Below, in pieces: positions 45,269-61,315 of a DNA stretch of 64,000 nt. The stretch's first letter is position 1. The number at the start of each line of letters is the position of its first letter. The position numbers and the translations under genes are program-made. The stretch covers positions 620,001 through 684,000 of the forward strand of contig BROI01000006.1 in assembly GCA_027923505.1 (NCBI GenBank), given 5' to 3'. A model generated the notes under the pieces. The model did no database searches. It was not told where the DNA came from and saw only the letters and a program-made list of their open reading frames with translations. The stretch comes from Mayamaea pseudoterrestris (lineage: Eukaryota).

Positions 45269-47599
45269 ATGAACCCAAAGGCAGATGCTCCTACGGCAGC
45301 AAGACTTTCATTGCACAAGCGCAAGCGCAGAAAGCTATATTATTCAGTCGATGTTTTGACCGACGGTTCGGAATGGACAGGCGACGGCACGCTGTTCCTG
45401 TCCGTCTACAAGGAGTCACCTTATGATGCGGAAGAAGAATCTACAAAGGTCACTTTGTCATCACAATCTGAACGGAATGATGTAGAACATGTTCGAGACG
45501 GCGAGGCTCAACATCAAGTTGACGATAACAAGACTCGCTCACACGTGCCTCCACCATTGGCTCGCTATTCGATGGGAAGCTTGACGGATGTTTTGAGTCG
45601 ATTGGCCTTCGACCAGCGCTTTTCACTGGGAGCAACCCGCGCCTTCTTTGCAGTGAATTCCAGCAACAGCAGTGAGTCTTGCGTCTGTCAAGGACTCGAA
45701 GGCTTGCCGCCGTTGCTGCTGAATCTCAAGCAAGCAGGTGCAGAGCAATTAACCTTGGTGTTGCGTGACGAAGCAACCATGCAAGCCGTCCAAGACACTG
45801 TTCCACTGATTCTTCCGTCGCATCGCTCGCAACACCCTCACGTGCAGCTTTGCAGTGTGCCAGCTGCCAAAGTGGCTGGTGAAACGAATGGACCTTGCTG
45901 GTGGAACGTGCATAGCGATGAATACGTTGTCGTTCATGCCAAGCGATTTCAACAAATCAACAATGATTCAAACGAGAGCGCCAATGAAACAGCGGTATTT
46001 GTCAATAGCGACACAGTGTTGTATTTGATGACATTGCTGCATCATGACGAAGCAGCGCGCAGCGCAAGTCTTGTCGTTGTTCCAGGTGATATGGAAGCAG
46101 AGCGTTTGAACGAAAGCATCCTTCAGCTGCCAGTGCTTGAGAATGGACTTGGCAAATCACCTACAGTCGAGATACGCTGGGGCATTGCTTTCGGAAGTAC
46201 GCTACCAAAGCTAACGACTGCGTCTACAAGTGCTGCTGCTGCTCATTCAGTGTCACTCGATGATAAAATTAGTTGGTATTACACGCAGCCTCGTCCAACG
46301 AATGTGCTCGATCCTGGCTTGCTGGTGCGGGCGCAGCAGCAATCGAAAACGTGGCATGCTGGTCGGCCGCAATACTTTCCATGGAACGAAACGACTGAGA
46401 TTGGTGATGCGAGTTGTGTCCGTCAGTCTGGCATGGATATAATGACTCGATTACACACGGGCTGGTCGCTATTACTAAAGAGCGAGAAGAATGCTTGCTT
46501 GCTCTTTGATCGAATGCGACAGTTAAAGGTAATAACGTCAAGCTCTTTAACGGATCGGTCGTTGTGGCCTTTGAAATGCGATTTTGAAATGGCGTCGTCA
46601 ACTAGTGACGACAATGAAATTGAGCTTGACGACGATGAGTGCGAAGTCAATGACGAGAAAGATAGAAATGACTGCAAAAACTCTTTAATGTCAACGCAGC
46701 TGTTAGTGCTCGGCACAGGATGCGCCGCTCCCTCGCCATATCGAGGATCGTCGGGTCATTGCCTGTTTCTGAGCCCCGATTTTACGTTTGTGTTTGAAGT
46801 GGGTGACGGGTTCTTGACGCAATGGTCGCGCTATAGCAGCCGAAGCTTGTTGACCATACGAGCCATTTGGATCTCTCATGCACATTGGGATCACTATGGC
46901 GGCTTGGCCGCGCTGCTTTTAAAGATTTTTGAAGTAAGACAAGACGTTCGTCGAGAGGAGCGACAACATTGCACGAGCCAAGGGTCAAGGAAACGACAAC
47001 GACAGGAAAGCATCGACCTGCCATTGGTTCTTGCTTGCGGCAAAGTGCTGAAATATCTAGAACAATACTTTGGTGATACAAATAATTACTTTCATGGTCT
47101 TAATATTGCACGGCTATCCAAACAGGCATCGGAATTGCTGTGTCAGCTTACAACTTGCGACCATATTGGAGCAGTGACACATCCAATCACCTTTTTTGAC
47201 ATTGTTCCAATGGACCACTCCTGTTACGACAGTTTTGGGTTTGTTATTGGTCTACATTGCCCCACGCGGCTAGCACCCTTTGTTTTCTGTTTCAGTGGCG
47301 ACACGCGTCCATGCCAGCGATTCGTGCACGTTTGCCGACAACGTGCAGCGCTTTGGAACAACGGATTTGTCGACTTGCTACTTCATGAAGCGACTTTTGA
47401 GGAAAGCGAGAGCGAAATGAGTATCACAAAAAAGCACTCAACCATAAAGGAGGCTATCGAAATTGGCTGGTCAATTCGAGCCGGCAAAATTTTCTTGACG
47501 CATTTCTCGCAAAGATATGCCGCGCCATCGGACCTAGACACGGATACAATTGCATGGACGCCGATGTTCGACGGCGTTTTAGTACCTTTGTTCAATTAA
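45269..47599 (+). CDS. ribonuclease Z, long form (ELAC2/Trz1-like metallo-beta-lactamase)
   Basis: LVLGTGCAAPSPYR, ISHAHWDH (HxHxDH), FSGDTRPC, LLHEATFE, HST and LTHFSQRY. Confidence 0.9.
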   Translation: MNPKADAPTAARLSLHKRKRRKLYYSVDVLTDGSEWTGDGTLFLSVYKESPYDAEEESTKVTLSSQSERNDVEHVRDGEAQHQVDDNKTRSHVPPPLARYSMGSLTDVLSRLAFDQRFSLGATRAFFAVNSSNSSESCVCQGLEGLPPLLLNLKQAGAEQLTLVLRDEATMQAVQDTVPLILPSHRSQHPHVQLCSVPAAKVAGETNGPCWWNVHSDEYVVVHAKRFQQINNDSNESANETAVFVNSDTVLYLMTLLHHDEAARSASLVVVPGDMEAERLNESILQLPVLENGLGKSPTVEIRWGIAFGSTLPKLTTASTSAAAAHSVSLDDKISWYYTQPRPTNVLDPGLLVRAQQQSKTWHAGRPQYFPWNETTEIGDASCVRQSGMDIMTRLHTGWSLLLKSEKNACLLFDRMRQLKVITSSSLTDRSLWPLKCDFEMASSTSDDNEIELDDDECEVNDEKDRNDCKNSLMSTQLLVLGTGCAAPSPYRGSSGHCLFLSPDFTFVFEVGDGFLTQWSRYSSRSLLTIRAIWISHAHWDHYGGLAALLLKIFEVRQDVRREERQHCTSQGSRKRQRQESIDLPLVLACGKVLKYLEQYFGDTNNYFHGLNIARLSKQASELLCQLTTCDHIGAVTHPITFFDIVPMDHSCYDSFGFVIGLHCPTRLAPFVFCFSGDTRPCQRFVHVCRQRAALWNNGFVDLLLHEATFEESESEMSITKKHSTIKEAIEIGWSIRAGKIFLTHFSQRYAAPSDLDTDTIAWTPMFDGVLVPLFN

Positions 47600-47672
47600 T
47601 TCTATAAACTTTTAGACTTTAGACAATAGATTACGGCGGACCGTAAAACCTGGAGGCTTGTTCTTTCTTACT

Positions 47673-50237
47673 TTACCCACCATCGTTCCAATCCTGCTGA
47701 AGATCGATGCCTTCCACCATCCATGAATCTAGGTTGTTCTCGAGAATATCGGAGAATGACAGCCCTGTTTCGGACCCAAAAATACCCATCTCATTCAACT
47801 TTGCGGCGAGAGGCAAAAGGTATTTCTCCATAACTTTGCATTGATTATCGAACCAACTTGGTCGAGGGTCAAATCCTTTCCCATCTTCCGCGGCCAAGAG
47901 TAGTTCCTTGTATAAACATGACATCCATTTGGTCATGTTCTCAAAATACTGCATGTTGTGCGAAACATCGGCGGCTCGAAGCAGTACCTCTATAACTACA
48001 GCTGCCTTTAAATCATCCGGTTCGTCGTAGTCAACGTGATTTTTTGTGTCTTGCATCTCAGTGAAGGTTGAGTGAACCGACATGTCACAGGAGCCACGCC
48101 GCGGATAAATTTCCACAGCCTCGCCCGACAAGTCCATTGACCGTCGGATTCCCAGACGTTTCTTGAAATTTTGAGAAGGACCTGAGCTATGAGTACTGTA
48201 GTTAAGACTCATGCGCCGATGCCCATTTGCCTTGAAGTCTGTCTCGATCGGACCTGTATGATTATGTTCACTGACTTGATGCTCGTCAATACTTGTTCCC
48301 ACCAGCGAGCCAAAGCGCATCGTCAAATTTCCTGTCGAAGCTCGACGAGCAACACCTCGCATGACAGTTGGTCGCGGTCGCGTTGCATCAATGTCAATGG
48401 AATGGGTTTTTTGAACTCCTCGTCGTTGATTGCCGCCTCGCTGATGGTTTGAATTACTGAGAGAACTCTCTGGATTGTTATAAATCCTTGGGATCCCAGA
48501 AATGATGACAGGTTCTTCGTCATCCGATGATGGAGGAGTCAGCGAAAGACTTTCTGAAGAGTCATCATCGTAATCCGCGTCATTGTATTCGTATTGAATG
48601 GGTTGTCGGACAGGCCCTTTGTTGCTTTTTTCATCGTCCGATGAACGATCCGAAATATCCTCGTAATCATCCCCATCGCCATCATTATGCTGATCTGGCC
48701 GTGTCTGGGGCCCTGTAAATTCACGTTTCTTTTGCGCCAAGACAATAGAGTTGGCCGTAACCGATTGAAAAGCACTAGACGCATACGTGTCCATGGACAT
48801 GTAGCTTTGGGTCGACTGCCTACGTGACAGTTTCTGCCGGCTGAATTGTCGCTGCTGCAGCCGCATTGAGTCTTCCGCAAAATGCGACAATTTGGCCATG
48901 GAATCACTACTTATACCAGAGCTGCTCTTGCCGACACCTCGCGCTGGCGGGTTTGACTGCTGCGGTCGGTAACGTTGTGCAACAGAGTCGTAATCAGATC
49001 CGCTCGAAAGTCGACGCTGCAAGGTCGGTTTTGCAGGTGTACGACGTGGACCACCCGCCACTGAATCATTGGCAATGTCCGAAAAGTTGCCCATGCTGTC
49101 AATGGATTCGTTGGAAGCTCTCCGAAGTGGGATGGGATTGTGATGATTGTTTCTGGTGGGCGACTTGAGCATATTGTAACTGTCACTTGTCACGTCCGAA
49201 ACAATACTGCTAATAGAAGCATTGGATCCACGACGATTCAAGCGTCTTACATCTTGATGTTCATTGGGTGAACTCGCCAGTTTATTGGCTCGATGCATGG
49301 ATATTTGCGACGTCACGCTGCCTCGTCGTCCGCCTTCGACCGCATAATTGCTGCCATCAAACATGTTTTGTCGCTTACCAAACGCCGCCTCCTTCCACTT
49401 AGAATTCGAAATTTGACATCGCTCTGGAGAAGCTAGATCCGTCGATAAAACTGATTGGATGACAAGCAAACGACACCGATGGTAGTCACCTTCCGTAGGA
49501 AAGAGTGCATGGTAAAAGTTGCAATACTCTGGACGCAAGAGTTCCGAAAAGGCCAGGTGCAGCGAATGATTCTCACTAATGCTTTGATCATTGTATTGCA
49601 GCGCAAGCTGCGGTTCGTCCATGGCGCGCTGCCGATTGCCAACTCCAGCGTGGTCCACGTCATGGACAAGCGCAGCAAAGAGCAAGGCGAAGAGCGCCAC
49701 AGAATCGCTCCGCAAACCAAATGTCGGCGGTCTCTGCTTGCCTTGACGCGGCCAAAAGTCTCGCGAAAGCATGAATTCCAGAAACTTGTTGGCGCTGACG
49801 CAAACATGGACAGCATGCATGTAGTTGTGAAAGGGCAAGTCGCGGTGGAGAGAAAGCATTCTGGTGACATATGCTCCTGTTTCTTGTATAGCTTGCATGG
49901 AGACGTAGCTGGACCAGTCAATATCACTCGCCGTATCACCAGTCAATAATTCTCTGCAAATTGTCGATGTACTTAAATCAGAAAATGTATTCAGCGGCGC
50001 ATTGATGGCAAAGAGTCGAACAATGAAGAGGCTCGTGACGCGTTCGACCCCAATATCCAAAGACTCTTCCTGTTCGTCTCCAATTTCGTCAGCGTCATCA
50101 TTTAATAGCGATCCCCATTCTTGTAGCGACAGCTCCAACGCTTGCATGGCTATATTTCGAGTTAAGGTAGAGTAGGAGCTGCGTGTATCATCATTCTGGT
50201 CTTGGCCGCAATCTTCACCTTCACTATTGTCGGTCAT
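47673..50237 (-). CDS. class I 3',5'-cyclic nucleotide phosphodiesterase (PDE-A), intronless
   Basis: PFHNYMHAVHV, AALVHDVDHAG, YNDQSISENHS, STDL, AADVSH and WFDNQ. First ATG at 50237. Confidence 0.9.
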   Translation of the reverse strand: MTDNSEGEDCGQDQNDDTRSSYSTLTRNIAMQALELSLQEWGSLLNDDADEIGDEQEESLDIGVERVTSLFIVRLFAINAPLNTFSDLSTSTICRELLTGDTASDIDWSSYVSMQAIQETGAYVTRMLSLHRDLPFHNYMHAVHVCVSANKFLEFMLSRDFWPRQGKQRPPTFGLRSDSVALFALLFAALVHDVDHAGVGNRQRAMDEPQLALQYNDQSISENHSLHLAFSELLRPEYCNFYHALFPTEGDYHRCRLLVIQSVLSTDLASPERCQISNSKWKEAAFGKRQNMFDGSNYAVEGGRRGSVTSQISMHRANKLASSPNEHQDVRRLNRRGSNASISSIVSDVTSDSYNMLKSPTRNNHHNPIPLRRASNESIDSMGNFSDIANDSVAGGPRRTPAKPTLQRRLSSGSDYDSVAQRYRPQQSNPPARGVGKSSSGISSDSMAKLSHFAEDSMRLQQRQFSRQKLSRRQSTQSYMSMDTYASSAFQSVTANSIVLAQKKREFTGPQTRPDQHNDGDGDDYEDISDRSSDDEKSNKGPVRQPIQYEYNDADYDDDSSESLSLTPPSSDDEEPVIISGIPRIYNNPESSLSNSNHQRGGNQRRGVQKTHSIDIDATRPRPTVMRGVARRASTGNLTMRFGSLVGTSIDEHQVSEHNHTGPIETDFKANGHRRMSLNYSTHSSGPSQNFKKRLGIRRSMDLSGEAVEIYPRRGSCDMSVHSTFTEMQDTKNHVDYDEPDDLKAAVVIEVLLRAADVSHNMQYFENMTKWMSCLYKELLLAAEDGKGFDPRPSWFDNQCKVMEKYLLPLAAKLNEMGIFGSETGLSFSDILENNLDSWMVEGIDLQQDWNDGG

Positions 50238-50667
50238 GCTGGCGAGGATACGAGCAGCAGCGTACAACTCAGCGGCTTTCTTGCCCAAAATCAAGGCTCG
50301 ACAGTTCAAACAGGTATCAATTATTTATTTTCGAGCGTATGAGCTGTATTGTTCAAGTTGATCCCGGTGAAAGAGTGAGGAAGGTGACTGCTTTTTGCTG
50401 CATTCTTTGGATTCCGGTCTTTCTCAATACTCGTAGTGTCGCACTAGTTACCGCTCCGTCATGAATCTTCCGTTTCCGTTGCTGTTCACGCTGGTACATT
50501 TTCTACGTGAGCTACGCAGCTTCCACCAAGGACGAGGAAGATTTTGTTCACGCACACACATCCACGATACAAAAGCAATGGCGACCATAATTTAGATCGC
50601 GCCTCAACTACAGTATCAAGTTAGACCGAAAAGAAAGAGGGCGAAATTCTTGAAGGTCTATTTCATC

Positions 50668-53600
50668 ATGTCATCGTCCTATCTTCCGCTGCTTTTCTTC
50701 CGACGCGACGACGACGACAATGATGAGCAGCAAGGCGACGACGCAGCACAAAGCAGCAGCAAGGACAATTCACTTGACGAGCAGAACCAGAACTCCGACC
50801 AAGACGACGAGGAGGAGCAAGGCTCTTCATCTTGGCATACGCGCCATGCTAGTAGCATTACTATGGAGTATTCCGATACGGATGATGACGACCGTCGTCA
50901 TTTTTCAGTGCCGAGCAGCAACAACAGTCCATTGACAATAAATTCATCCTGGCTATCAGGTCGCATTTACAGCGCTCCAGATGACGCTAGCGATAAAACC
51001 AGTCGAGATGTTAGCTGGATGAAGCAATTGGCCGAGTCATTTCGGCCAAAGGACAAGCAGTCGTCCAAGACTCGAGCGAGGAAGCATCACCGCCGAGTCT
51101 CATCGCAACGAGAGTATCCTCAAATCATGTCGCCGAGTACTAGCTCCATACTAGCGAACAGCAAGAACTTCTTTAGTCCGAGCAATGGCAGCAATCCACA
51201 GAGTGAAGCGTCCCCTTTGCTGGGTTTATCTTTTGCAAGCAATGCAACGTCAATGTCGACCTTTGCAGGCGCAACGAAAAGCAAGCCTCCACTGGCGAGC
51301 AGCAGCAATAATAACAAGGACGACAATGACGAAACATTTAAGAAGAAGACAAAGCTGCATCCATTTTATACGGCGCTAGCAGCCTCCTTTTTGCAAGACT
51401 ATGAGGCGAATCGAAAGCCAGTACTTTGTCGAGACGTTGCCAAAATTACCTGGCATCAGCTGCAGCTGCACCATATCAAGTATTCTGGCTGGTTATATTC
51501 ATTAAACTTATGCATTGCAACGCTTGCACTCTTTGTATCGAGTGCTTTGGAGGAACAAGGAAACGAATACACAAGTTACGATGCAACTGCTGGAGAAGGA
51601 AGCATTCCCAAGCGCCTTTGGCTGACTGGTTTGAATGCTTACGCCATTTGCGTCTTGGCCGTGGACCTTTGGATCCGTAACCAGCTGCAACCAACCGAGG
51701 CAACGCCAATGACGTCAGTCATGCCGCGACGAATTACTGCCTCATTTGCAAATCCTACAAAGCTGCAGCGTCAGTCAAGCAAGGGACAACAGCAACGAGC
51801 AAATCTACCGATGCAGCAACCAATTAAGAATGAGCAGGCAACGGGCGATGATGCGCTCGTCAAACCCTTGATACTATTTCTGCTGGTTCTTGGTTTAGAA
51901 ACCACGGCGAGACTTGGGATTGCCTACTTGGCATTGAGCAAGGCTGACGACGATGGCAGCGACGCTGCGTTTGACAATGTCACGCAATCGCATGCTTTGC
52001 ATGGTCAAGCACAGCAGCAGCAACAACAACAGCCAATGGTTCTCTTTTCGTCCCTACTCAAGCCTTTGGTCTTGTTTTACGTAAGCCATCGAGCGCGGAA
52101 TGCTCTGGAAGCCTTGGGTCGCATTATGCGAATTGTAATTCGCGTTTTGTTCATGGAGTTGTTGGTGAGTCTGCCTCAATAATAACGACAAGCTTTGCTC
52201 TGCAAACGTGCTTGTATGGGAAAAACACTCACCTTGTATCAACCATTTAGGTCATTTTCATCTTTGCTGCCATTGCATGTCGCCTCTTTAACGAGTTTGA
52301 AGCATTCAAAAATTTATCCAGATCATGGCTCTCTCTCTTCGAGCTATCAACAACAGTGGTCAACCCATCATTGTGGATGCCAATGGTACGTCGCTTCTGT
52401 TCGTGCGATTGCAACGACGAGTCGATCCCTTCCGTCTTTCGTTTCACTAACCCGCATGTTTTCGAAGTATCAAGCCTCGAAGTATTCGGCATTCTTCTTC
52501 ATTTTCTTCATTGTCACATCTGTCCTTTATCTGCATTCGCTGGTTCTTTCAGTTGTCTTTCAAACCTACGTTCTGGCTGCTTCTGAAATTCATGAACGCA
52601 GCGTTGCTGACAGAGAAGAAGCAATTCACCGTTCGTACTTGGCGTTGCGGCAGCACGATACTAGTCAAGGACTCATCTCGACGGAGAGTGTGCGAGAGCT
52701 GCTCTCCCAATTAAGACCTCATTACAATGTCTATAAGATAGATGCTTTGGTGGAAATTGTCGATCCGCATAGAAGGTCGGTGGTCGATTATTCCACTTAT
52801 CGAGTAAGTCCATGTCGTTGGTCACACGAGATTTGAGCTCCTCAATATTTACTGACTTCTCACTCTGTGATGTGCCGTTCCCGTATGATAGACGAGAATC
52901 CGACAAGCATTGAATGCCTCCATCCGGACAACGAGAACAGCGTCCGCCGTGGCCATGAGTGTCGAGCTACTCGCCGTCATAGTCGCCATTGTCAATTTTG
53001 CGTACGTTATACTGGTCTCTATTGCTTTCGATATGAAGTGGTTTGACAGCATGGAAGCTACACTGGGATGCATTATTACCGTGGTTGCAGCGTCAGAACT
53101 TGTAGTCCGTTTCAACCCGCTTCGAATAAGCGATTTTACTCCGTTGACTCGTTTGAATGTTTGCTTTGACGGTTTGGCTCTCTTGGCTGCTCTAATATCT
53201 ACCTTTGGGATGGTGCTTCATGCGAGGGGCGAGCCTTTGGCAATGGAATTGATTTTATCTGGCAGAGCGATTGATATTTTCCGGGTCATGCGATTCTTTT
53301 CCATGTTTCGCGACGTGGTTCGTCGAAGTGCCGATGTTCTACCAGTGTTGATCGGGCCTTGCATCCTTGTTGCTACGACGCTCCACGTGTTCGTGTATGT
53401 GGGCATGGCGCTTTGGGGCGGCGCGGTTAATATTGGGCAGCGACATGAGCTCGCGCAGCTTTACAACTTAAACAACTTCAACAGCTACCAGGAAGGCTTA
53501 GTCACAATGTTTAATGTTCTCGTGGTCAACGATTGGCACGCTATTGCGGAGGTCTTTCTCCACGCGAAACGGTGTTCGAGCACATATATTGTCATGCCCT

Positions 53601-54399
53601 TTTTTGTGATCGGAAATTTGATGGGTGTCAGCATAATGCTAAAGTAAGTTTTTGAGGAAAGGCAATACTCGGATCTGCTTGAACATGCCACTTATACTGT
53701 GAGCACCTCTGGTCTCTCTTCCTTAGCGTCGTGACGGCTTTCTTTGTACAAGCATTCGTCACGAAACTGGACGACGATGCGATTGTCGCGCCTATCAACG
53801 CCCTCAAATTGGTTCAGCCCTCCAAGGCACCACCAGACTCGGGACTCCGAAATTCTGAAAATGCGTCGTTTCGTGTCTCTTCAAGCACCAGCAGTATATA
53901 CGACCAGGGTAGTGATCAGGGCGCAGATGCCGACTCAGAGGGCAGCTCTGACTCGGACTTCCTTGAGTTTGATGTCTACGAGAGACAAGGCTATGACAAG
54001 GTGATGCAGACCGTCGCTGGTGGCTCGTATACTCAGTCAAATATTGCACTGGACGTCAGCGAGTATCTCGGGACGTTCGAAAAGCTTGTTCCCGACCGTG
54101 AAGCAGTTGGCTACCATATTTGCGACCAGCTAACAATGGAGCGATTCGGCAATCACCTTTTTATGGCCATGGCGGAGGGTTTTGTTGAGTCCAACGAACT
54201 TCATGTGATCGTCAGCGAAATGCATGCAGAACTAATAGCTCTCGCTGATAGCCCTCCGGACAAGAATCGCTCGCTGATCCGCACATATTCCCATCACCAA
54301 CGGCCTGACCAAGAATCACTAGAGATCACCGCAGCTCTCTTGCGTAAACATCCAGCTCTTTCTCTACTGGTTTCACGCCGTCGATTGAAACAAGCTTAG
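50668..54399 (+). CDS. two-pore channel (TPC)-like cation channel
   Basis: Introns 52165..52250, 52386..52467, 52804..52891 and 53644..53726 give two channel repeats. Pore I is WLSLFELSTTVVNPSLWMPMY and pore II is NFNSYQEGLVTMFNVLVVNDW. EF-hand-like linker; S4-II GRAIDIFRVMRFFSMFR. Confidence 0.85.
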
Positions 54400-54618
54400 T
54401 TTGCGCTGCGTCAGCAGGTCGCGCCCATCGCTTTTTACAACAAGTATATTAAGTAGTGTAAATGTAAAATATTGTTGTCAGTATCATAACCTTAAACCCA
54501 ACCGATACATAGATACTACACATAATCAACCATCATGCTCGACAGAGACGTCGACGACGTAAAATATTTTCTTTGCCACCTCAACCACATCCCACCACGT
54601 GGGTCGATCCAACTACGA

Positions 54619-56876
54619 TTATAAAAACAAACGATCCGGCTCCGTCACTTGTTTCTCCATGTCAGCTATACTTCCGCCCAGTTTCGCCTCAACATCTGCG
54701 GCGTCACTTCCAGTTGCTCCACCTTCCATCACGCCGAGGTGTTCAATCCATTCGTCGTTGCCCGGAAACATGGCGAATCCATCTTGGATCATCTTGTTTG
54801 TCGATTGCGCTCCTTCGACAAGCCAACGATCGCGGCTGCTTTCGACGACTTCACCAAACATAGATCCCAAGGGCCCGTACGCACCCGTTGCATCCAGCCG
54901 CTGAGAAAGAGGAGCCAAGTAGAACTCCAAGAATCCAATCTGGTTTTGGAACCAGTTCTCTTTGGGATCAGGTCCACGGTTCTCCAACATGGCCTGTGAA
55001 AATTGAAGGGTTAGCACTGACAGGTTTAAGCCGCTTCGATTACACAAAGTCACATACCTTGCGCATTTCAATGTAGAGGCGGCCGGCCCACTTGCACATT
55101 TGCTCGTACCCCTGCAAGTTTTGGCTGACATCCGCCGCAGTCACTGAAAAAGCGAACATAAAGGTTAGTTCCCACTGCTGAAAAATCACTTAATATAATA
55201 GCACCACGCAACTCACTTATGAGGTCCATCAATACGGCAGCCTTTAGGTCATCAACTTCATCATCCACTTCATCCTTGAACAGACTGGTCCGACGTGTTG
55301 TTCTTCTGTATGTCTCGACCGTTTCTCCGGTCAAGTCCATAGAGACTCGAATACCGAGTTTCTTATTCTTGTTCAGACCAAAAGAGTTTCCAATAGATCC
55401 TAACGACCCAGTAACAAGTTTCACTGTATTCTTCATGGGATCAACAGTATACTTCCTGGCTTGATTAAGCATATCCTTGGATGCCGCAGGTGAATCTGCC
55501 GTGTCGTCATCGTTTTCGCTAGTCTTGGTGATCCCTGAGTTACGTTTGAGAGATTTGCTCATGGCCGACATGCCTCCAGTCATGGAGCTCACCATGCTCT
55601 TGGGAGGTTTGGGTGACAATTTCGCACCCCCAGCAGCTTCTTGGTCAGCGGTCGATGTAGACTTGACTCCTACCACACCTCCCACTCCCTTGAACACCTT
55701 GGAGACTCCGTCCATGCTGGCCTCTCCAATCTTTTTGACGCCGCTAACACCGAAATTGGCAACATTCTTGACGCCACTGACACTGGCGTCCGCCACCGTC
55801 ATGACGCCTCCCGAAACGTTTTGCACGCCCTTGTTCAAGGCTTTCACCGTATTCATGGGCATGCGCCGAACGTGCTCCAGCATGTTTTCTTCCACCTCAT
55901 CTTCCGTGAGCGCTGCATCACTTGGCAACGAGGGATTCTGAAATGCCTCTATATACTTGCTCTTTGCCAATTGTACATTCGAAGGTGACGCAATATCCGT
56001 GTTGAGAACCAACGAAAGGACTTTGGAACGAAACTCGTGATACTCTGTTGACACGGGAAAGATTGTCTCTCGAAGCTCCTTGTAGTCGGGCTTGAGCAGC
56101 TCCTGAAAGCCAATGAACAAACTCCGCTGCTCGGCAATCGACGTGTCATTGTACAAAATGGCAAGCTCATCATCCTCCAGGGCCAGCTGTCGGTTCGGCA
56201 AGCCCCGATGCTCCACGTCGTGAATAATGGCGGCAAACACCAACGCCAGCAAGCTCAGCGCATTTTGGCGCAGCCCAAAACTGTTGCAGCGATGCACCCA
56301 CAGCATGTCGAGCAACTTGTTGGTGCTAATTGTGACATGAGTCGCATGCGAAGCATTATGGTAAGGCACTTTTGGATCATACTTGATCAAAATGCTGCGG
56401 ACAAACTGCTCCACTTGGCGAACGACCGTTTCGGAAATTGGCCAATCGCACTGCTCCTGCAAAAAGACGGTGCAAATGTTGGTCGTGCTCCAGTTTGTTT
56501 CCGGAAAGGGCGACTCCTCCATAAAGCTCGACTGCTCCGACTGCAGCAGCAAGAGTTGTTGCTGCTGCTTGTAGTCAAACTCGCATTCGGAGAACTCGTT
56601 AGTGTCTAAAAGTTCTTCCTGCTGCTCCTGCTGCTTTTTCAGCAGCTCCTCCTGCCGCGTTTGCTTGGCAATTTCCATGGCGCGAGCCACGACGCGTACC
56701 AAAAGCAAGGATGTGACTCTCTTGACATTGATTTCAAAGTCGTCCGTGGCGGCAGTGATTGGATGATCGCCCTGACCAAGCTGCGTCCAATGCTGCTCCG
56801 AAAGGGCGAGTGCAATGGCGGCATATGGAGGCGTTGACGTCGGCGTCGCGGAGTTAGAGGAGGAAGATGACGGCAT
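54619..56876 (-). CDS. class I cyclic nucleotide phosphodiesterase (PDE-B)
   Basis: PYHNASHATHV, AAIIHDVEHRG and NTDI. Removing introns 55216..55144 and 55057..54994 restores MTAADVSQ..KW..RLY.E and WFQNQIGFLEFY. Confidence 0.92.
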
Positions 56877-57488
56877 GATACTTGAGCTCAGTGGCTTGAT
56901 CGGTGTGAAGATCTGTAATGCTTGAAGCTTGGTAACTTGAAAGGCAGTGAGCAATGCAACGATGAACAGTCGTCTTGGTGCTGTCAAGGTGCGGAAGGAG
57001 TGTTTGTTATGTGACTGTATGGCGCTTGCCTTACTGTGCTGAAGTACCAAAAGCTTAGCTTGACACAACCTTTCAACCTTTTACGACTCCAAGATACGGA
57101 GAAACTATCGTTTACTCCAACTTGTGTAGTCCCGCCGATCGTGAGAAACGTGTCGGCTGAACCTGTGAAAACGATTTTGATTTCTGTCATGGTGCCTTCA
57201 GAAACGGCACTGGAAGATATGAATGTCTTTTTATGTCGCACCGAAGTTGAAGTGCGTCAAGAATACTTAAGCCTTGCGGAGTTTTGTGACGCACGTGACA
57301 CGGGAGGCTGCGGTCCATTCCCGCATCAACCATGACCCTTTTTTTCTTGTCACACTCGATCTTGCGTCTTGACCATTGCTCGTCGCGACGTGCATATCTA
57401 ACTATTACAACTGCACTTGCTTTCTTCACTCGCTTAATAGTATTTTTTACAATTTTGTTGCATATTGCATTGATTCTTTGGTAACAGC

Positions 57489-59439
57489 ATGGCATTGACG
57501 GAGGAAGAGTCATCAATTGCAGCTGCAGCAGATACTAATATGGAACCAGCCACGTTGGCACTCGCCCTCGTCTCTCAGGATTGGAGAACCATTGGTTTGA
57601 ACGTTGACGACCCGCTCACGGCTGCAACAAGCGATACCAGTCTCATTATTGATCGACTATATGCCATTCTTCTAATTCGGCTCGCGGCCATTGTGGCGCC
57701 GCTGGGAACCTTTAGCGATTTGAGTGTCTACAGCGTCAGCTCCAAAATTATCAAGATGAAGACATGGCCGGACGCATTGACCAGCAAGGTTCGCGCGCAG
57801 CTCCACGACTTTGTGAGTCGCATCATTAAAGGCTACAAGAATAATCACTACCATAACCAGGAGCATGCCTGTCACGTGACACTGAGTGCCTGCAAGTTGA
57901 TGGATTTGTTTTTGTATGGAGACTTGAATGACATTGAATCGGACTACTTGATTAGCACTAACAAGAATCCATCCTTTGGCTTGCGGAATGATCCGCTACT
58001 GCTCTTCGTCGTGGTCTTTAGTGCATTGATTCATGACGTGGAGCATCAGGGACTGCCGAATCGGCAATTGGCGATGGAAAAGGATCGATTAGCGGTGCTT
58101 TACAATGATCAAAGCATTGCCGAAAATTGGAGCTTGTACGTTGCCTTTAGCGAGCTGCTGCAAAATGATTTTACGGAGCTTCGTCAAGCCATGTTTACAT
58201 ATGTTGCTCCGCTGGAAAAGTCTGCTGCTGATGCTGACGCAGTAGCTAATGATGTTGCTGACAACCAAGCATTGGACGCGCATAGTCAACACTCGCATCA
58301 AGTTGCAGCAACGACGCCACCACCACCTCCTTCGTACGACGATCTTTACCAACGGTTTCGTCGTTTCACAGTCAATCTCGTATTGGCCACGGACATTGCC
58401 TCGCCCGAAAAGTCGCAACTTGCCAAGAGTAAATGGAAGGAGGCCTTTGGCGACTCGTTTGAAACGGTGGAGCGCAAAGTACGCCATGAAATGCGTCGGG
58501 CGTCCATTGGCATGACTGGCAAAGTGATTGGAAGCAACAGCAATCGCCGGGGAAGCAACATTTCCGACGTTTCCGCAAGCCCCGGTTTGTTGGCTGGCGC
58601 AGCAGCGCCTGCGAATGGAGACCACAACGATGACGACAGTTTGAGCGTCACGCCGGAGCATTCGGAGAGCGACGATTTGGACGTTTCGCATACGAACAGT
58701 CATCAGCAATCACCAGTTTTACATCAACCCCAGCAACGCAAGGTGAGCATGGGCTACGGACCAGGTGCACCTTGTCGCTTTGAGCGACGCATGTCAACCT
58801 CGACGAGCAAGTCGAGTAGCAAGTATCGTCAGCGACTTGGCATTCGCCGGTCCATGGACTTGTCGGGTGAGACAATTGAAGCGTATCAGCAGACTGCGTC
58901 CTCGTCAGTGTCGTCGTCCAACATGAATCATCATCACTATCAATCCAGTGGAGGCGCCACGGTGTACTCGGTTGACGTTGATTCGGACTTGCCGGATGAA
59001 CTTAAAGCGACGGTTGTCATGGAGGCAATCATGACGGCCAGTGACGTTGCGCATAATTTGCAAGGGTTTGAGCAAATGAAAAAGTGGAGCAACAAACTGT
59101 ATCTTGAGTTGCGCAAGGCGTACGTGGCCAAGCGTGGGGTTGATTGTTCGCCCAAGGTGAGTAGCGTATTTGTGCAGGACAACCAACTGGATTACATATT
59201 GTTACCATAAGCTTACTTTTATGCTTCTCTCATTCTATCAGTGGTTTGAAAATCAAATTGGCTTTTTGGAGTCGTACTTGCTGCCGCTGGCACGAAAGCT
59301 TGAAGATACTGGGGTCTTTGGAGAGACTGAATTTGCGCGCAATGTGGAGCAGAATCGAGACCTTTGGTTGACGCGCGGCTTTGAAATATCGGAACAAATT
59401 GTCAAGGAAGGCTTGGAGCTGTATCCCGAGCCAGAGTAA
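57489..59439 (+). CDS. class I cyclic nucleotide phosphodiesterase (PDE-C)
   Basis: YHNQEHACHV, SALIHDVEHQG, ATDI and ASDVAH. Intron 59157..59241, then WFENQIGFLESYLLPL. Confidence 0.93.
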
Positions 59440-59485
59440 ATCAAGTTTTGAAAAATAAAAAAGGTATATAACGTTTAAAGCTATT

Positions 59486-61315
59486 TTAAGCGGCGTAAAC
59501 AAGTATAGCGTAGACGACCATGGACGGCAAACAAGCCGACAGGATTGTAACGATCATGTAAGGATAAGCATGGTTTGTTTGCTTATGAACAAAGTCGTTC
59601 AGCTCGAAGCAAAAAGTAGATACAGTCGACAGGCAGCCAGCAAAGCCAATCCGTGTAACTCTGACGAAAGCAATAATCCAGTAATCGCGCAGATAGCTTT
59701 CCTGCATACGATACTCCAGAGCAACGCAAATAATACTGACAAGACTGCCAAGCACATTGGCCGTAAACGTTCCCAAAGGAAACCAAGGATACTGCGAGAG
59801 CGATCCATTCAAGGCTCCAAGCTTCCACCGCAGACATGCTCCAAAAGGAGCTACCAACATGGCCAATGCCATGGTTCGGTAAGTGCGAGTAGTTGACTCG
59901 TCGGAAGACAAAAAGACGGCAGCAATGGCGAGGGAGCAGATTATGAACCATAGGACAAACGAAGCGACCGGAAGCGTTAGCCATCGGCTTGGAGCAACGT
60001 TTGACTTGTCCAGCAACATTTTGCTCCAACTTTGAAGTCCAGTTGGTGAGCAGAGTTTGGACTTTTCATTAACATAGGCTTGGAGCGCACCAATGTCCCA
60101 TGCCTCGTCGCGGGCCATGGCTTCGGCATGCTTTGGTATCGGAACATTGAGAATCAGCGCCGCTCGTTCAATCTCAACCAGAATCGGCAACAGCGTATTG
60201 TTCACTCTCCTAGAACTTTTGGTTGATTCTCTCCATTGAATCAAGCAATCAGTGTTCAATGGTACAATTTCATCCGTCTGCGATAAGGGTTCCATGTCTA
60301 AATCAAGTAGCACTCGACGCTCATAGTCTGGAAGCTCACAGTGAATGTAGACACCTTCCTCCCTCTTGACTCTTACCAGCTGCGCCTCCTCCACAAGCGT
60401 CGGGTTGACGTATCCGTGAATGAACCGGGCCAGAGACTTTCCAGCGGCAAAAGATCCTTGAGCCGTCTCCATACCAACAATGTAGCCGAGCAAGGCCAAC
60501 CAGATTTGAGTATTCAAATTGCTCCCAGTACCAAAAATGAGTACCACCATGGCCGAGTTCCAGCTGCTAAAAGTTGTCAGCGAGCCGCAAAAACCAGTTT
60601 TAAAAGCATTGTGTAATATTTCCATGCTCTGAAAGGGATGATCCGGTTTGAGCCATGCCCTGCGACAAACAAGCGAGACGTCAGGTTCGTAGCAAGCAAC
60701 ACGTCATTTCTATCGCTCGATCCTAGATTTTAAATCACTTACAATGGCATCGGCAGGGCTAGATGCAAGTATTCTCCATTCACAACCATTCCCATCAGGA
60801 AGCAACCAAGCATGTTCGCTGGAAGGTCGCTAAAAATGACACCACCTTCTTGCAGAGTATCTCCATCCTGCGTGACGCAAAGCGGAGCTCCACTGGACAA
60901 CCAGCCAACTGTACCTGGATTCGCACACTCCTCGCCAAAGAGTTGGGCGACGATCATGCGACAAAACGCCCCGAGAATGGCGCCGACGCTAATGTAGCAA
61001 GCCTGGACCCACAGCAGACGAGACCATCGTTTGCGATCGCGAGCTAAATCGTCTTCGTCGTCATCCGAGACTGTAAATCATAATGCAGATTACTATCCAT
61101 CAGTTATGTCAATGAATAGTCTAGTCAACGAAAGATTCGCGCTTGCTCGTACCTCGTTGAAAGTCGGAGTGTTCAGCATCGTCTTTTTTGAAAAGCACAT
61201 CTTCTTCATCCAGCTGCCGATACTCGGCTCCAATCACTTGTTGCTGCTGTCCATCATCAACATTAAGTGATGGCAGCAGCTGGTCAATGCTTGTAGTCTT
61301 TGAAGGGTTGTCCAT
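59486..61315 (-). CDS. FEX1: FEX fluoride exporter (two fused Fluc/CrcB domains)
   Basis: Exons 61315..61153, 61070..60743 and 60659..59486. Domain 1: GAILGAFCR, ANMLGCFLMG, KTGFCGSLTTFSSW. Domain 2: PFGACLRW, FPLGTFTANVLGS, IGFAGCLSTVSTF. Confidence 0.92.

Follow-up and report, generated by a model that had tools for sequence, protein, structure and literature searches.

A long insert with a conserved island inside the catalytic domain of three diatom phosphodiesterases, a candidate phospho-regulatory loop

Introduction

What is a long insert doing inside the catalytic domain of a cyclic-nucleotide phosphodiesterase (PDE)? The question is raised by three class I PDE genes, here called A, B and C, in a stretch of 64,000 nucleotides (nt) from Mayamaea pseudoterrestris (GenBank assembly GCA_027923505.1, contig BROI01000006.1, positions 620,001 to 684,000 of the forward strand); this whole stretch is referred to as the window. 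In each gene, the catalytic domain is interrupted by an insert that has a short conserved island near its end. The inserts are translated, and the island occurs throughout a diatom clade of stand-alone PDEs, where the insert also carries kinase-type RRx[ST] sites and an acidic cluster. The best explanation, to which I would give about an even chance, is that the insert is a disordered, multi-site phospho-regulatory loop within the catalytic domain, built around a small folded hairpin.

Three class I PDEs with an interrupted catalytic domain

The genes and their inserts are as follows. Coordinates are positions in the window, and the inserts are measured from K[WY].EA to D[DE]LKA.

47673-50237, minus strand: gene A, class I PDE, a single exon for 854 amino acids, with Met at 50237 and the stop codon at 47673-47675 (open reading frame list and translation)
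54619-56876, minus strand: gene B, PDE, three exons (56876-55217, 55143-55058 and 54993-54619), with the putative start Met at 56876
55144-55216 and 54994-55057, minus strand: the two introns of gene B, GT..AG (sequence reading and contigs)
57489-59439, plus strand: gene C, PDE, two exons (57489-59156 and 59242-59439; sequence reading)
59157-59241, plus strand: the intron of gene C, GT..AG (sequence reading and contigs)
48018-49385, minus strand: insert of A, 456 amino acids (residues 309-764 of P0001), rich in Ser and Arg, modelled as disordered, with the acidic stretch DDDSSESLSLTPPSSDDEE
55254-55943, minus strand: insert of B, 230 amino acids (residues 376-605 of P0002), rich in Val, Gly and Lys
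58446-58994, plus strand: insert of C, 183 amino acids (residues 320-502 of P0003), with RRAS, RRGS and RRMS and the acidic stretch DDDSLSVTPEHSESDD

It was found that A, B and C are class I PDEs with an intact catalytic core, and that they are paralogues within a diatom-wide clade of stand-alone enzymes. They match PF00233 with 98.3, 67.8 and 71.7 bits, respectively, against a gathering cut-off of 24.8 bits (E = 7.6e-28 for A). The match before the insert runs from position 1 to about position 117 of the 238 in the profile; the second stretch is matched in A and C, and B matches the first half of the profile only. The motifs YHNYMHAVHV, HDVDHAGVGN, TDLASP and AADVSHN of A have equivalents in B and C, the last one of B lying in exon 2. 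In a family alignment of 120 sequences from pennate diatoms, H119, H123, H170, D171, H174 and D245, which I take to be the metal ligands from what is established for PDE4 structures, are invariant. In Pfam scans with an E cut-off of 0.01, A, B and C showed no family besides PF00233, and thus neither a PF00211 cyclase domain nor PDE4_UCR (UCR1/UCR2); likewise, 12 of 12 long family members have PF00233 alone and no extra Pfam domain. Hydrolysis of cyclic AMP (cAMP) or cyclic GMP (cGMP) by A, B and C is predicted from this family membership. The open frame of A spans 47673-50309 on the minus strand, and its 854-residue product is identical to the database protein P0148.

The family also has the consensus WF.NQIGF with nearly invariant N, Q and F, and NQIGF is found in the last exons of B and C. 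Its Gln and Phe are presumably the canonical purine-binding Gln and the hydrophobic clamp Phe. At residue 826 of A (47832-47834), the sequence reads NQCKV, with the Gln kept and a Val where at least 90% of the 120 sequences have Phe. Substrate or inhibitor binding of A may differ with Val at the clamp column.

The inserts lie between common anchors: TDLASP (residues 290-295), KWKEA (304-308) and DDLKA (765-769) in A, TDIASP (357-362), KYIEA (371-375) and DDLKA (606-610) in B, and TDIASP (301-306), KWKEA (315-319) and DELKA (503-507) in C. When A was aligned with the solved rhodopsin-PDE 5vyd_A, its residues 203-295 fell on chain residues 92-181 and its residues 758-803 on 197-241. Thus, an interval of 15 residues in the solved enzyme corresponds to 462 residues in A. 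An initial annotation of the window, made from the sequence alone, had described a long catalytic-domain insert of roughly 450, 230 and 180 amino acids in the three PDEs, in an interval that is short in canonical class I enzymes. Translation and pattern mapping bear this out, with actual sizes of 456, 230 and 183 amino acids and an interval of about 15 residues in solved PDEs. In the family, the loop between helices H11 (...SKWKEAF) and H12 (DELKA..AADVAHN) ranges from about 45 to over 700 amino acids. The insert of B consists of 11% Val, 10% Lys and 9% Gly, with repeated GV.K-like units.

The inserts are part of the proteins

Are the inserts perhaps unrecognised introns or assembly artefacts that the mature protein does not contain? 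They do divide the Pfam match into two parts, and the genes have introns. However, the inserts are open in frame over 183-456 codons, while the true introns of B and C are 64-85 nt long and lie near the 3′ ends. Contigs of four sequencing runs (X1-X4), none of which is recorded as RNA, were aligned to 47600-59500. The contigs of X1 and X3 run straight through the introns. In those of X2 and X4, four GT..AG introns are missing (the three of B and C and one of a neighbouring gene), and these two runs were taken as cDNA-like because of the four spliced joints. Contigs of 1421 letters (record 12 of X2 and record 26 of X4) span 55217-56300 unbroken and then skip both downstream introns of B; the whole B insert is thus kept in spliced contigs. 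No joint was reported inside any of the three inserts in X1-X4, for which the contig pieces displayed leave out the middle of the A insert (about 48231-48659) and part of the C insert. The initial annotation had named splicing of the inserts as a finding that would refute it; these contigs speak against such splicing.

Strain variation points in the same direction. Of 13 strain variants listed for the A insert, 11 alter a third codon position and are synonymous (binomial P = 2e-4; 40 of 349 differences are listed). The listed indels within the inserts are 3 nt long (48224 in A and 58535 in C), and a 2-nt indel at 55192 falls in intron 1 of B. The identity of the aligned run pieces to the window is 95-99% in about half of them. 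In addition, the island is present in every one of 19 transcriptome-derived diatom sequences examined; it lies 118-385 residues after TD..SP in the 14 of them in which this anchor was found, and the island is conserved at the protein level in 120 of 120 aligned sequences. The inserts are therefore translated, retained in the mRNA and under coding constraint, and their being introns or artefacts is extremely improbable.

The island is common to a diatom-wide clade

The island was mapped by pattern in the three inserts.

48105-48161, minus strand: island of A, KRLGIRRSMDLSGEAVEIY, residues 717-735
55308-55364, minus strand: island of B, KKLGIRVSMDLTGETVETY
58830-58886, plus strand: island of C, QRLGIRRSMDLSGETIEAY

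These positions match those that had been given approximately (about 48110-48165, 55305-55365 and 58830-58886). A six-frame scan of the whole window revealed exactly three islands and three HD motifs. In pairwise BLAST of the inserts, the island is the sole significant match in each pair (A-B, 24 residues, 67%, E = 3e-6; A-C, 46 residues, 48%, E = 2e-10; B-C, 22 residues, 64%, E = 5e-7). The A and C inserts have two further weak collinear matches, an acidic Ser-rich stretch (E = 0.017) and NRRGSN.S (E = 0.22). The inserts had been called unalignable except near their end; pairwise BLAST nearly agrees, but the family profile reveals further small islands, which are described below.

The island has the 18-residue consensus RLG[ILF]xR[TSA][VMI]DL[STG]GEx[IL]ExY. 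Among the 120 aligned sequences, the counts are 118 for R372, 120 for L373 and 119 for G374, followed by [ILF] and a variable residue, then 118 for R377, T/S/A in 80, 31 and 9 sequences, and [VMI]. The second half has D380 in 120, L381 in 116, [STG], G383 in 120, Glu in 107, a variable residue, [IL], E387 in 111, another variable residue, and Y389 in 110. A relaxed pattern is found in 114 of 122 family sequences and the other 8 are close variants (DLGGE, IRVS, IRMS); thus, the island is present in 122 of 122. Two roles for single residues were rejected. The Ser/Thr of the island is ruled out as an obligatory phospho-acceptor by Ala in 9 of 120 sequences and by many centric variants of the RRALDL type. 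A PKA pseudo-substrate (RRxA-hydrophobic) is ruled out by the spacing, with Ser or Ala directly after RR.

How far does the island spread? A word-indexed search with C gave 249 matches; 120 of 120 of those listed carry PF00233, and the organisms named among them are diatoms (Fistulifera, Nitzschia, Seminavis and Epithemia). The family profile matched 10363, 4269 and 1211 of 1.84 billion cluster representatives at E <= 1e-3, 1e-10 and 1e-30, respectively, and the 1211 clusters (50% identity) include a related clade of cyclase-PDE fusions. Among the best 150 matches were 137 new proteins, in which a hidden Markov model of the island scored at least 15 bits in 98, lower in 25 and not at all in 14. 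Many of the latter 25 and 14 proteins are fragments or have diverged island forms, such as RLGIRRALDLTG..IEAY and LGIKRALHLNGSTIEFY in the centric diatoms Pseudictyota, Stephanopyxis and Aulacoseira. A search seeded with the Stephanopyxis protein named only diatoms among the matches listed, and the neighbours in the ESM Atlas are Bacillariophyta clusters first and Chordata PDEs second. Judged by these sequence searches, the island runs through the family in pennate and centric diatoms alike, and marks a diatom-wide clade of stand-alone PDEs, in agreement with the distinct subfamily proposed initially.

The minimal member P0256 is instructive: its H11 and H12 are about 45 residues apart, and these residues are essentially the island alone. 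Since this minimal member keeps nearly nothing but the island, the island is the conserved core of the insert, and the disordered flanking arms are the part that grew.

The island is not an ordinary part of the PDE fold

The initial annotation had left open that the motif belongs to the ordinary PDE fold of known families. The island aligned to no solved PDE sequence with A, the family profile or the island plus C-terminal half of A as the query; with the last of these, the alignments in the PDB sequence search begin only past the island. It was also absent from 22 of 22 diatom cyclase-PDE fusions examined. The fusions have an unbroken PDE match in 3 of 3 scanned with Pfam and an H11-H12 linker of 25-35 residues in the six that were read. 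In hhalign, the stand-alone family and the fusions align with probability 100 (E = 3e-73, 389 columns, 32% identity), and the fusion side has a gap over nearly all of the insert and the island, from KEAF to DE.DEL. These comparisons indicate that the island is a feature apart from the common fold.

What structure may it have? An AlphaFold2 model of the Fistulifera member P0019, built from the 120-sequence alignment, has a mean predicted local distance difference test score (pLDDT) of 84.8 and a predicted TM-score of 0.84. The catalytic core and the N-terminal helical extension of about 110 residues reach pLDDT 91-99, and residues 286-344 are below 50. In the island, strands are modelled at 377-379 and 385-387 (block pLDDT 69 and 79). 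The blocks before the island have pLDDT 40-51, the block after it 64, and the segment directly before H12 84-94. Foldseek placed 5vyd_B first for this model (TM-score by target 0.72, probability 1.00), followed by PDE3A, PDE8A and PDE4; the model thus matches the all-helical PDE catalytic fold. In a model of A, most core blocks have pLDDT 90-98 and the insert has 33-51 apart from the island block. This block (701-710) has pLDDT 61 against 40-44 in both neighbours, with a bridge between 701 and 707. The conserved residues L373, I375, R377, V/M379, L381, I/L386 and Y389 alternate, with the variable 376 and 378 between them, and this alternation fits a strand with one buried face. The models thus suggest that the island is a small beta-hairpin. 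A complex prediction for the P0019 core (two chains) and the island segment 348-399 gave no verdict (scores 0.00 and 0.00, with the alignment unused) and does not enter the argument.

The N-terminal extension of the family, of about 110 residues, has the consensus ..TSQDW..LGLG.DP..AAS...VER.TALLL.R...DLSTTTICR and no Pfam coverage. Equivalent N-termini are present in A, B and C. In the P0019 model (residues 1-118), it is predicted as four helices with pLDDT 92-98, packed as part of the domain.

Does the island cover the active site? It had been suggested as an autoinhibitory pseudo-substrate, and one may think of a pseudo-substrate or a lid that is released by a signal. Pocket capping by regulatory segments is known from the UCR2 helix of PDE4 and the gamma subunit of PDE6. 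No other element of the insert is as well conserved as the island, and the long flexible arms could in principle reach the pocket. However, the substrate is a nucleotide, and the island mimics none. In P0256, a tether of 5 residues joins the island to the start of H12, which would put the island at the end of this helix that is far from the metal-binding Asp. The hydrophobic alternation and the modelled hairpin suggest constitutive packing instead, and the Ser/Thr of the island is often Ala. I found no support for the pseudo-substrate and consider such a lid very unlikely.

Alternatively, the island may be a docking motif on a surface hairpin for a partner such as a kinase or a scaffold, comparable with the kinase interaction motif (KIM) that serves ERK in PDE4; this partner would then act on the [ST]P and RRx[ST] sites close by. 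The KIM presumably lies in the same H11-H12 linker. The modelled hairpin fits this reading, as do a conserved [TS]P about 50 residues upstream of the island and a basic cluster (KYRQR, FRKR, NFKKR) followed by L-G-I, which agrees with a loose [KR]..hydrophobic-x-hydrophobic pattern. Such patterns, however, carry little information, and the invariant or nearly invariant D380, G383, E387 and Y389 go beyond a docking motif and look like parts of a fold. Nor could the island be aligned to any solved PDE. I consider docking unlikely. As for the regulatory or docking island of the initial annotation, a regulatory role for the insert is plausible, but the island is only one of five conserved elements.

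Kinase-type sites and an acidic cluster surround the island

The other four conserved elements in the family alignment are three RRx[ST] sites and an acidic cluster. Among the 120 sequences, site 1 has Arg in 92 and 99 and Ser in 103, site 2 has Arg in 97 and 96 and [ST] in 106, and site 3 has Arg in 104 and 118, followed by [LMF] and by Ser in 112. The acidic cluster, [DE][DE]xSxSx[TS]P[DE]xS[DE], has its two Ser in 111 and 108, [TS] in 116 and Pro in 99. The sites, fixed in alignment columns, fit the consensus of basophilic kinases of the PKA/PKG type. The cluster and RRx[ST] were found at the family positions in A and C by BLAST or alignment.

Are these sites more than a by-product of composition? 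In the A insert, 8 RRx[ST] sites are present where 0.88 are expected, and none of 2000 shuffles has as many; the C insert has 3 against 0.22 (1 of 2000 shuffles reaches 3). The B insert has 2 against 0.05, RRTT and RRTS, both directly past the island and none before it. In 180 family proteins with both anchors, 487 sites were observed against 62.7 expected from shuffles, and the density per 100 residues is 1.16 inside the inserts and 0.06 outside. At least two sites are present in 129 of the 180 inserts and none in 13. These counts bear on the view that the loop is a tolerated low-complexity expansion without a regulatory role, in which the island merely joins H11 to H12 and the motifs are compositional or weakly selected. 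That view draws on the range of insert lengths, from about 45 to over 700 residues, on the unalignable sequence between the islands, and on the insert of B, which differs in composition (rich in Val, Gly and Lys) and is without the three sites. Against it, RRx[ST] exceeds its frequency in composition-matched shuffles about 8-fold and its density in the remainder of the protein about 20-fold. Moreover, the acidic cluster and sites 1-3 occupy fixed columns in 90-118 of the 120 pennate sequences, and synonymous changes dominate among the listed variants of the A insert. I consider a purely tolerated expansion quite unlikely. From their sequence features, the RRx[ST] sites appear to be better candidates for a regulatory input than the island.

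Because the RRx[ST] sites and the acidic cluster surround the island, the loop is most likely a phospho-regulatory module. In this mechanism, a short surface linker between H11 and H12 would have expanded into a translated, mostly disordered loop. The island hairpin would pack one hydrophobic face (L, I, V/M, L, I/L and Y) on the enzyme. The three RRx[ST] sites would take input from PKA/PKG-type or other basophilic kinases, for example as feedback from a cyclic-nucleotide-dependent kinase. The loop would thus do the job of the N-terminal regulatory regions in animal PDE3, PDE4 and PDE5.

Several points weigh against the phospho-regulatory loop. Phosphorylation itself and any effect on activity are predictions. 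RRx[ST] is short, and its enrichment indicates selection but names no kinase. B has lost sites 1-3 and 13 of 180 inserts have no site at all, so that RRx[ST] is not required throughout the family; the regulation of B may be different or may have been lost. The confidence of the hairpin is moderate (pLDDT 69-79 in P0019 and 61 in A), and its packing on the enzyme is a proposal. One family member, P0152 (344 residues), is without the island and has about 40 residues between H11 and H12; it may be a natural island-free form, an isoform, or the product of a faulty gene model in which the island was taken for an intron. As to translation, the RNA nature of X2 and X4 is deduced from the spliced joints and is not recorded, the synonymous excess in the A insert rests on a subset of the differences, and a minor isoform that is without part of an insert may be compatible with the contigs.

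A more specific version of the phospho-regulatory loop can be put forward tentatively, although I would not expect it to hold in full. Here, the control of diatom PDEs would have moved into the catalytic domain, with the hairpin-anchored loop as a multi-site switch that is read by kinases and tunes the breakdown of cAMP and cGMP. Phosphate on the three conserved RRx[ST] sites, with the acidic S/T-P cluster as a counterweight, would shift the loop or the seating of the hairpin on the enzyme.

Comparison with known PDEs

In animal PDE4, PDE3 and PDE5, the PKA, PKG and ERK sites lie outside the catalytic domain. Mammalian PDE4, one of the best matches in sequence and structure, has the catalytic fold in common with the family of A, B and C. 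According to two papers, PDE4 is controlled by PKA, through an RRES-type site, and by ERK, for which the KIM, borne by a surface beta-hairpin loop of the catalytic unit, is the docking place (PMC12699188, PMC7291338). The likeness thus consists in feedback phosphorylation and a hairpin on the catalytic domain. However, PDE4 has its PKA site in the N-terminal UCR1, while A, B and C carry the kinase-type sites in a linker of 183-456 residues. In PDE4 this linker is short; the solved chains have about 15% identity in the structural alignment, and the island is unaligned.

The catalytic-domain insert of PDE3, of 44 residues, is called 'unique' among mammalian families in a recent review (PMC13095499). 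PDE3 and the diatom enzymes are alike in a class I catalytic domain that is interrupted by a family-specific insert, but in diatoms the insert is longer by a factor of 4 to 10, mostly disordered and equipped with conserved motifs of its own. The place presumably also differs, with the PDE3 insert in the first metal-binding region and the diatom insert between H11 and H12. The rhodopsin-PDE of Salpingoeca rosetta (5vyd / 7d7p) is the best phmmer match of A and the best structural match among the solved chains. It differs in having 15 residues where A has 462, no island, and a rhodopsin fusion context.

The closest paralogous clade found is that of the diatom cyclase-PDE fusions, which share the taxon and the motifs TDIA, RW.KAF and LKAT..E.I..ASDVAH. 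They have a PF00211 domain, an unbroken PDE and a linker of 25-35 residues, whereas A, B and C have no cyclase and an interrupted PDE. One diatom GC/PDE fusion is a pheromone-induced protein of Seminavis robusta (PMC4726125). A description of the present insert was not found in the main text of open-access full texts, nor was a relevant diatom phosphoproteome paper mentioning PDEs found in the open-access literature. Thus, the enzyme family is known; the large H11-H12 insert with its island and kinase-type sites appears from the sequences to be new, and its function is a prediction.

Neighbouring genes

The GC content is flat across the window (47-52%). Between A and B, a multi-exon gene on the plus strand (50650-54399) has an ion-transport domain (PF00520, E = 4e-10, at 52910-53647), and its GT..AG intron at 53644-53726 is skipped in X2 and X4 contigs. 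Pfam scans of the neighbouring gene pieces, including this gene, found no cyclic-nucleotide-binding domain. B and C are divergent, with 612 bases between the likely start codons (56877-57488), and may have a promoter region in common. The three PDE genes are flanked by two further genes:

45269-47599, plus strand: metallo-beta-lactamase-fold protein (PF12706/PF00753)
59486-60625, minus strand: CrcB-like fluoride channel protein (PF02537, E = 1.8e-20)

Significance

In diatoms, there is a link between cyclic-nucleotide signalling and CO2 sensing. To my knowledge, how diatom PDEs are controlled is not known. A tie between this signalling and sexual pheromone responses is described in PMC4726125. 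The clade of A, B and C is large, and the loop is the one part outside catalysis that it conserves. Since the clade is without a recognisable regulatory domain, the loop is the obvious place to seek such control. The inserts are also a natural example of a very large insertion that is tolerated at the H11-H12 junction of a PDE. The 18-residue module and the three serines are defined targets that can be mutated directly. If the kinase-read switch proposed above is true, the loop would be a feedback architecture that has not been described for any PDE family.

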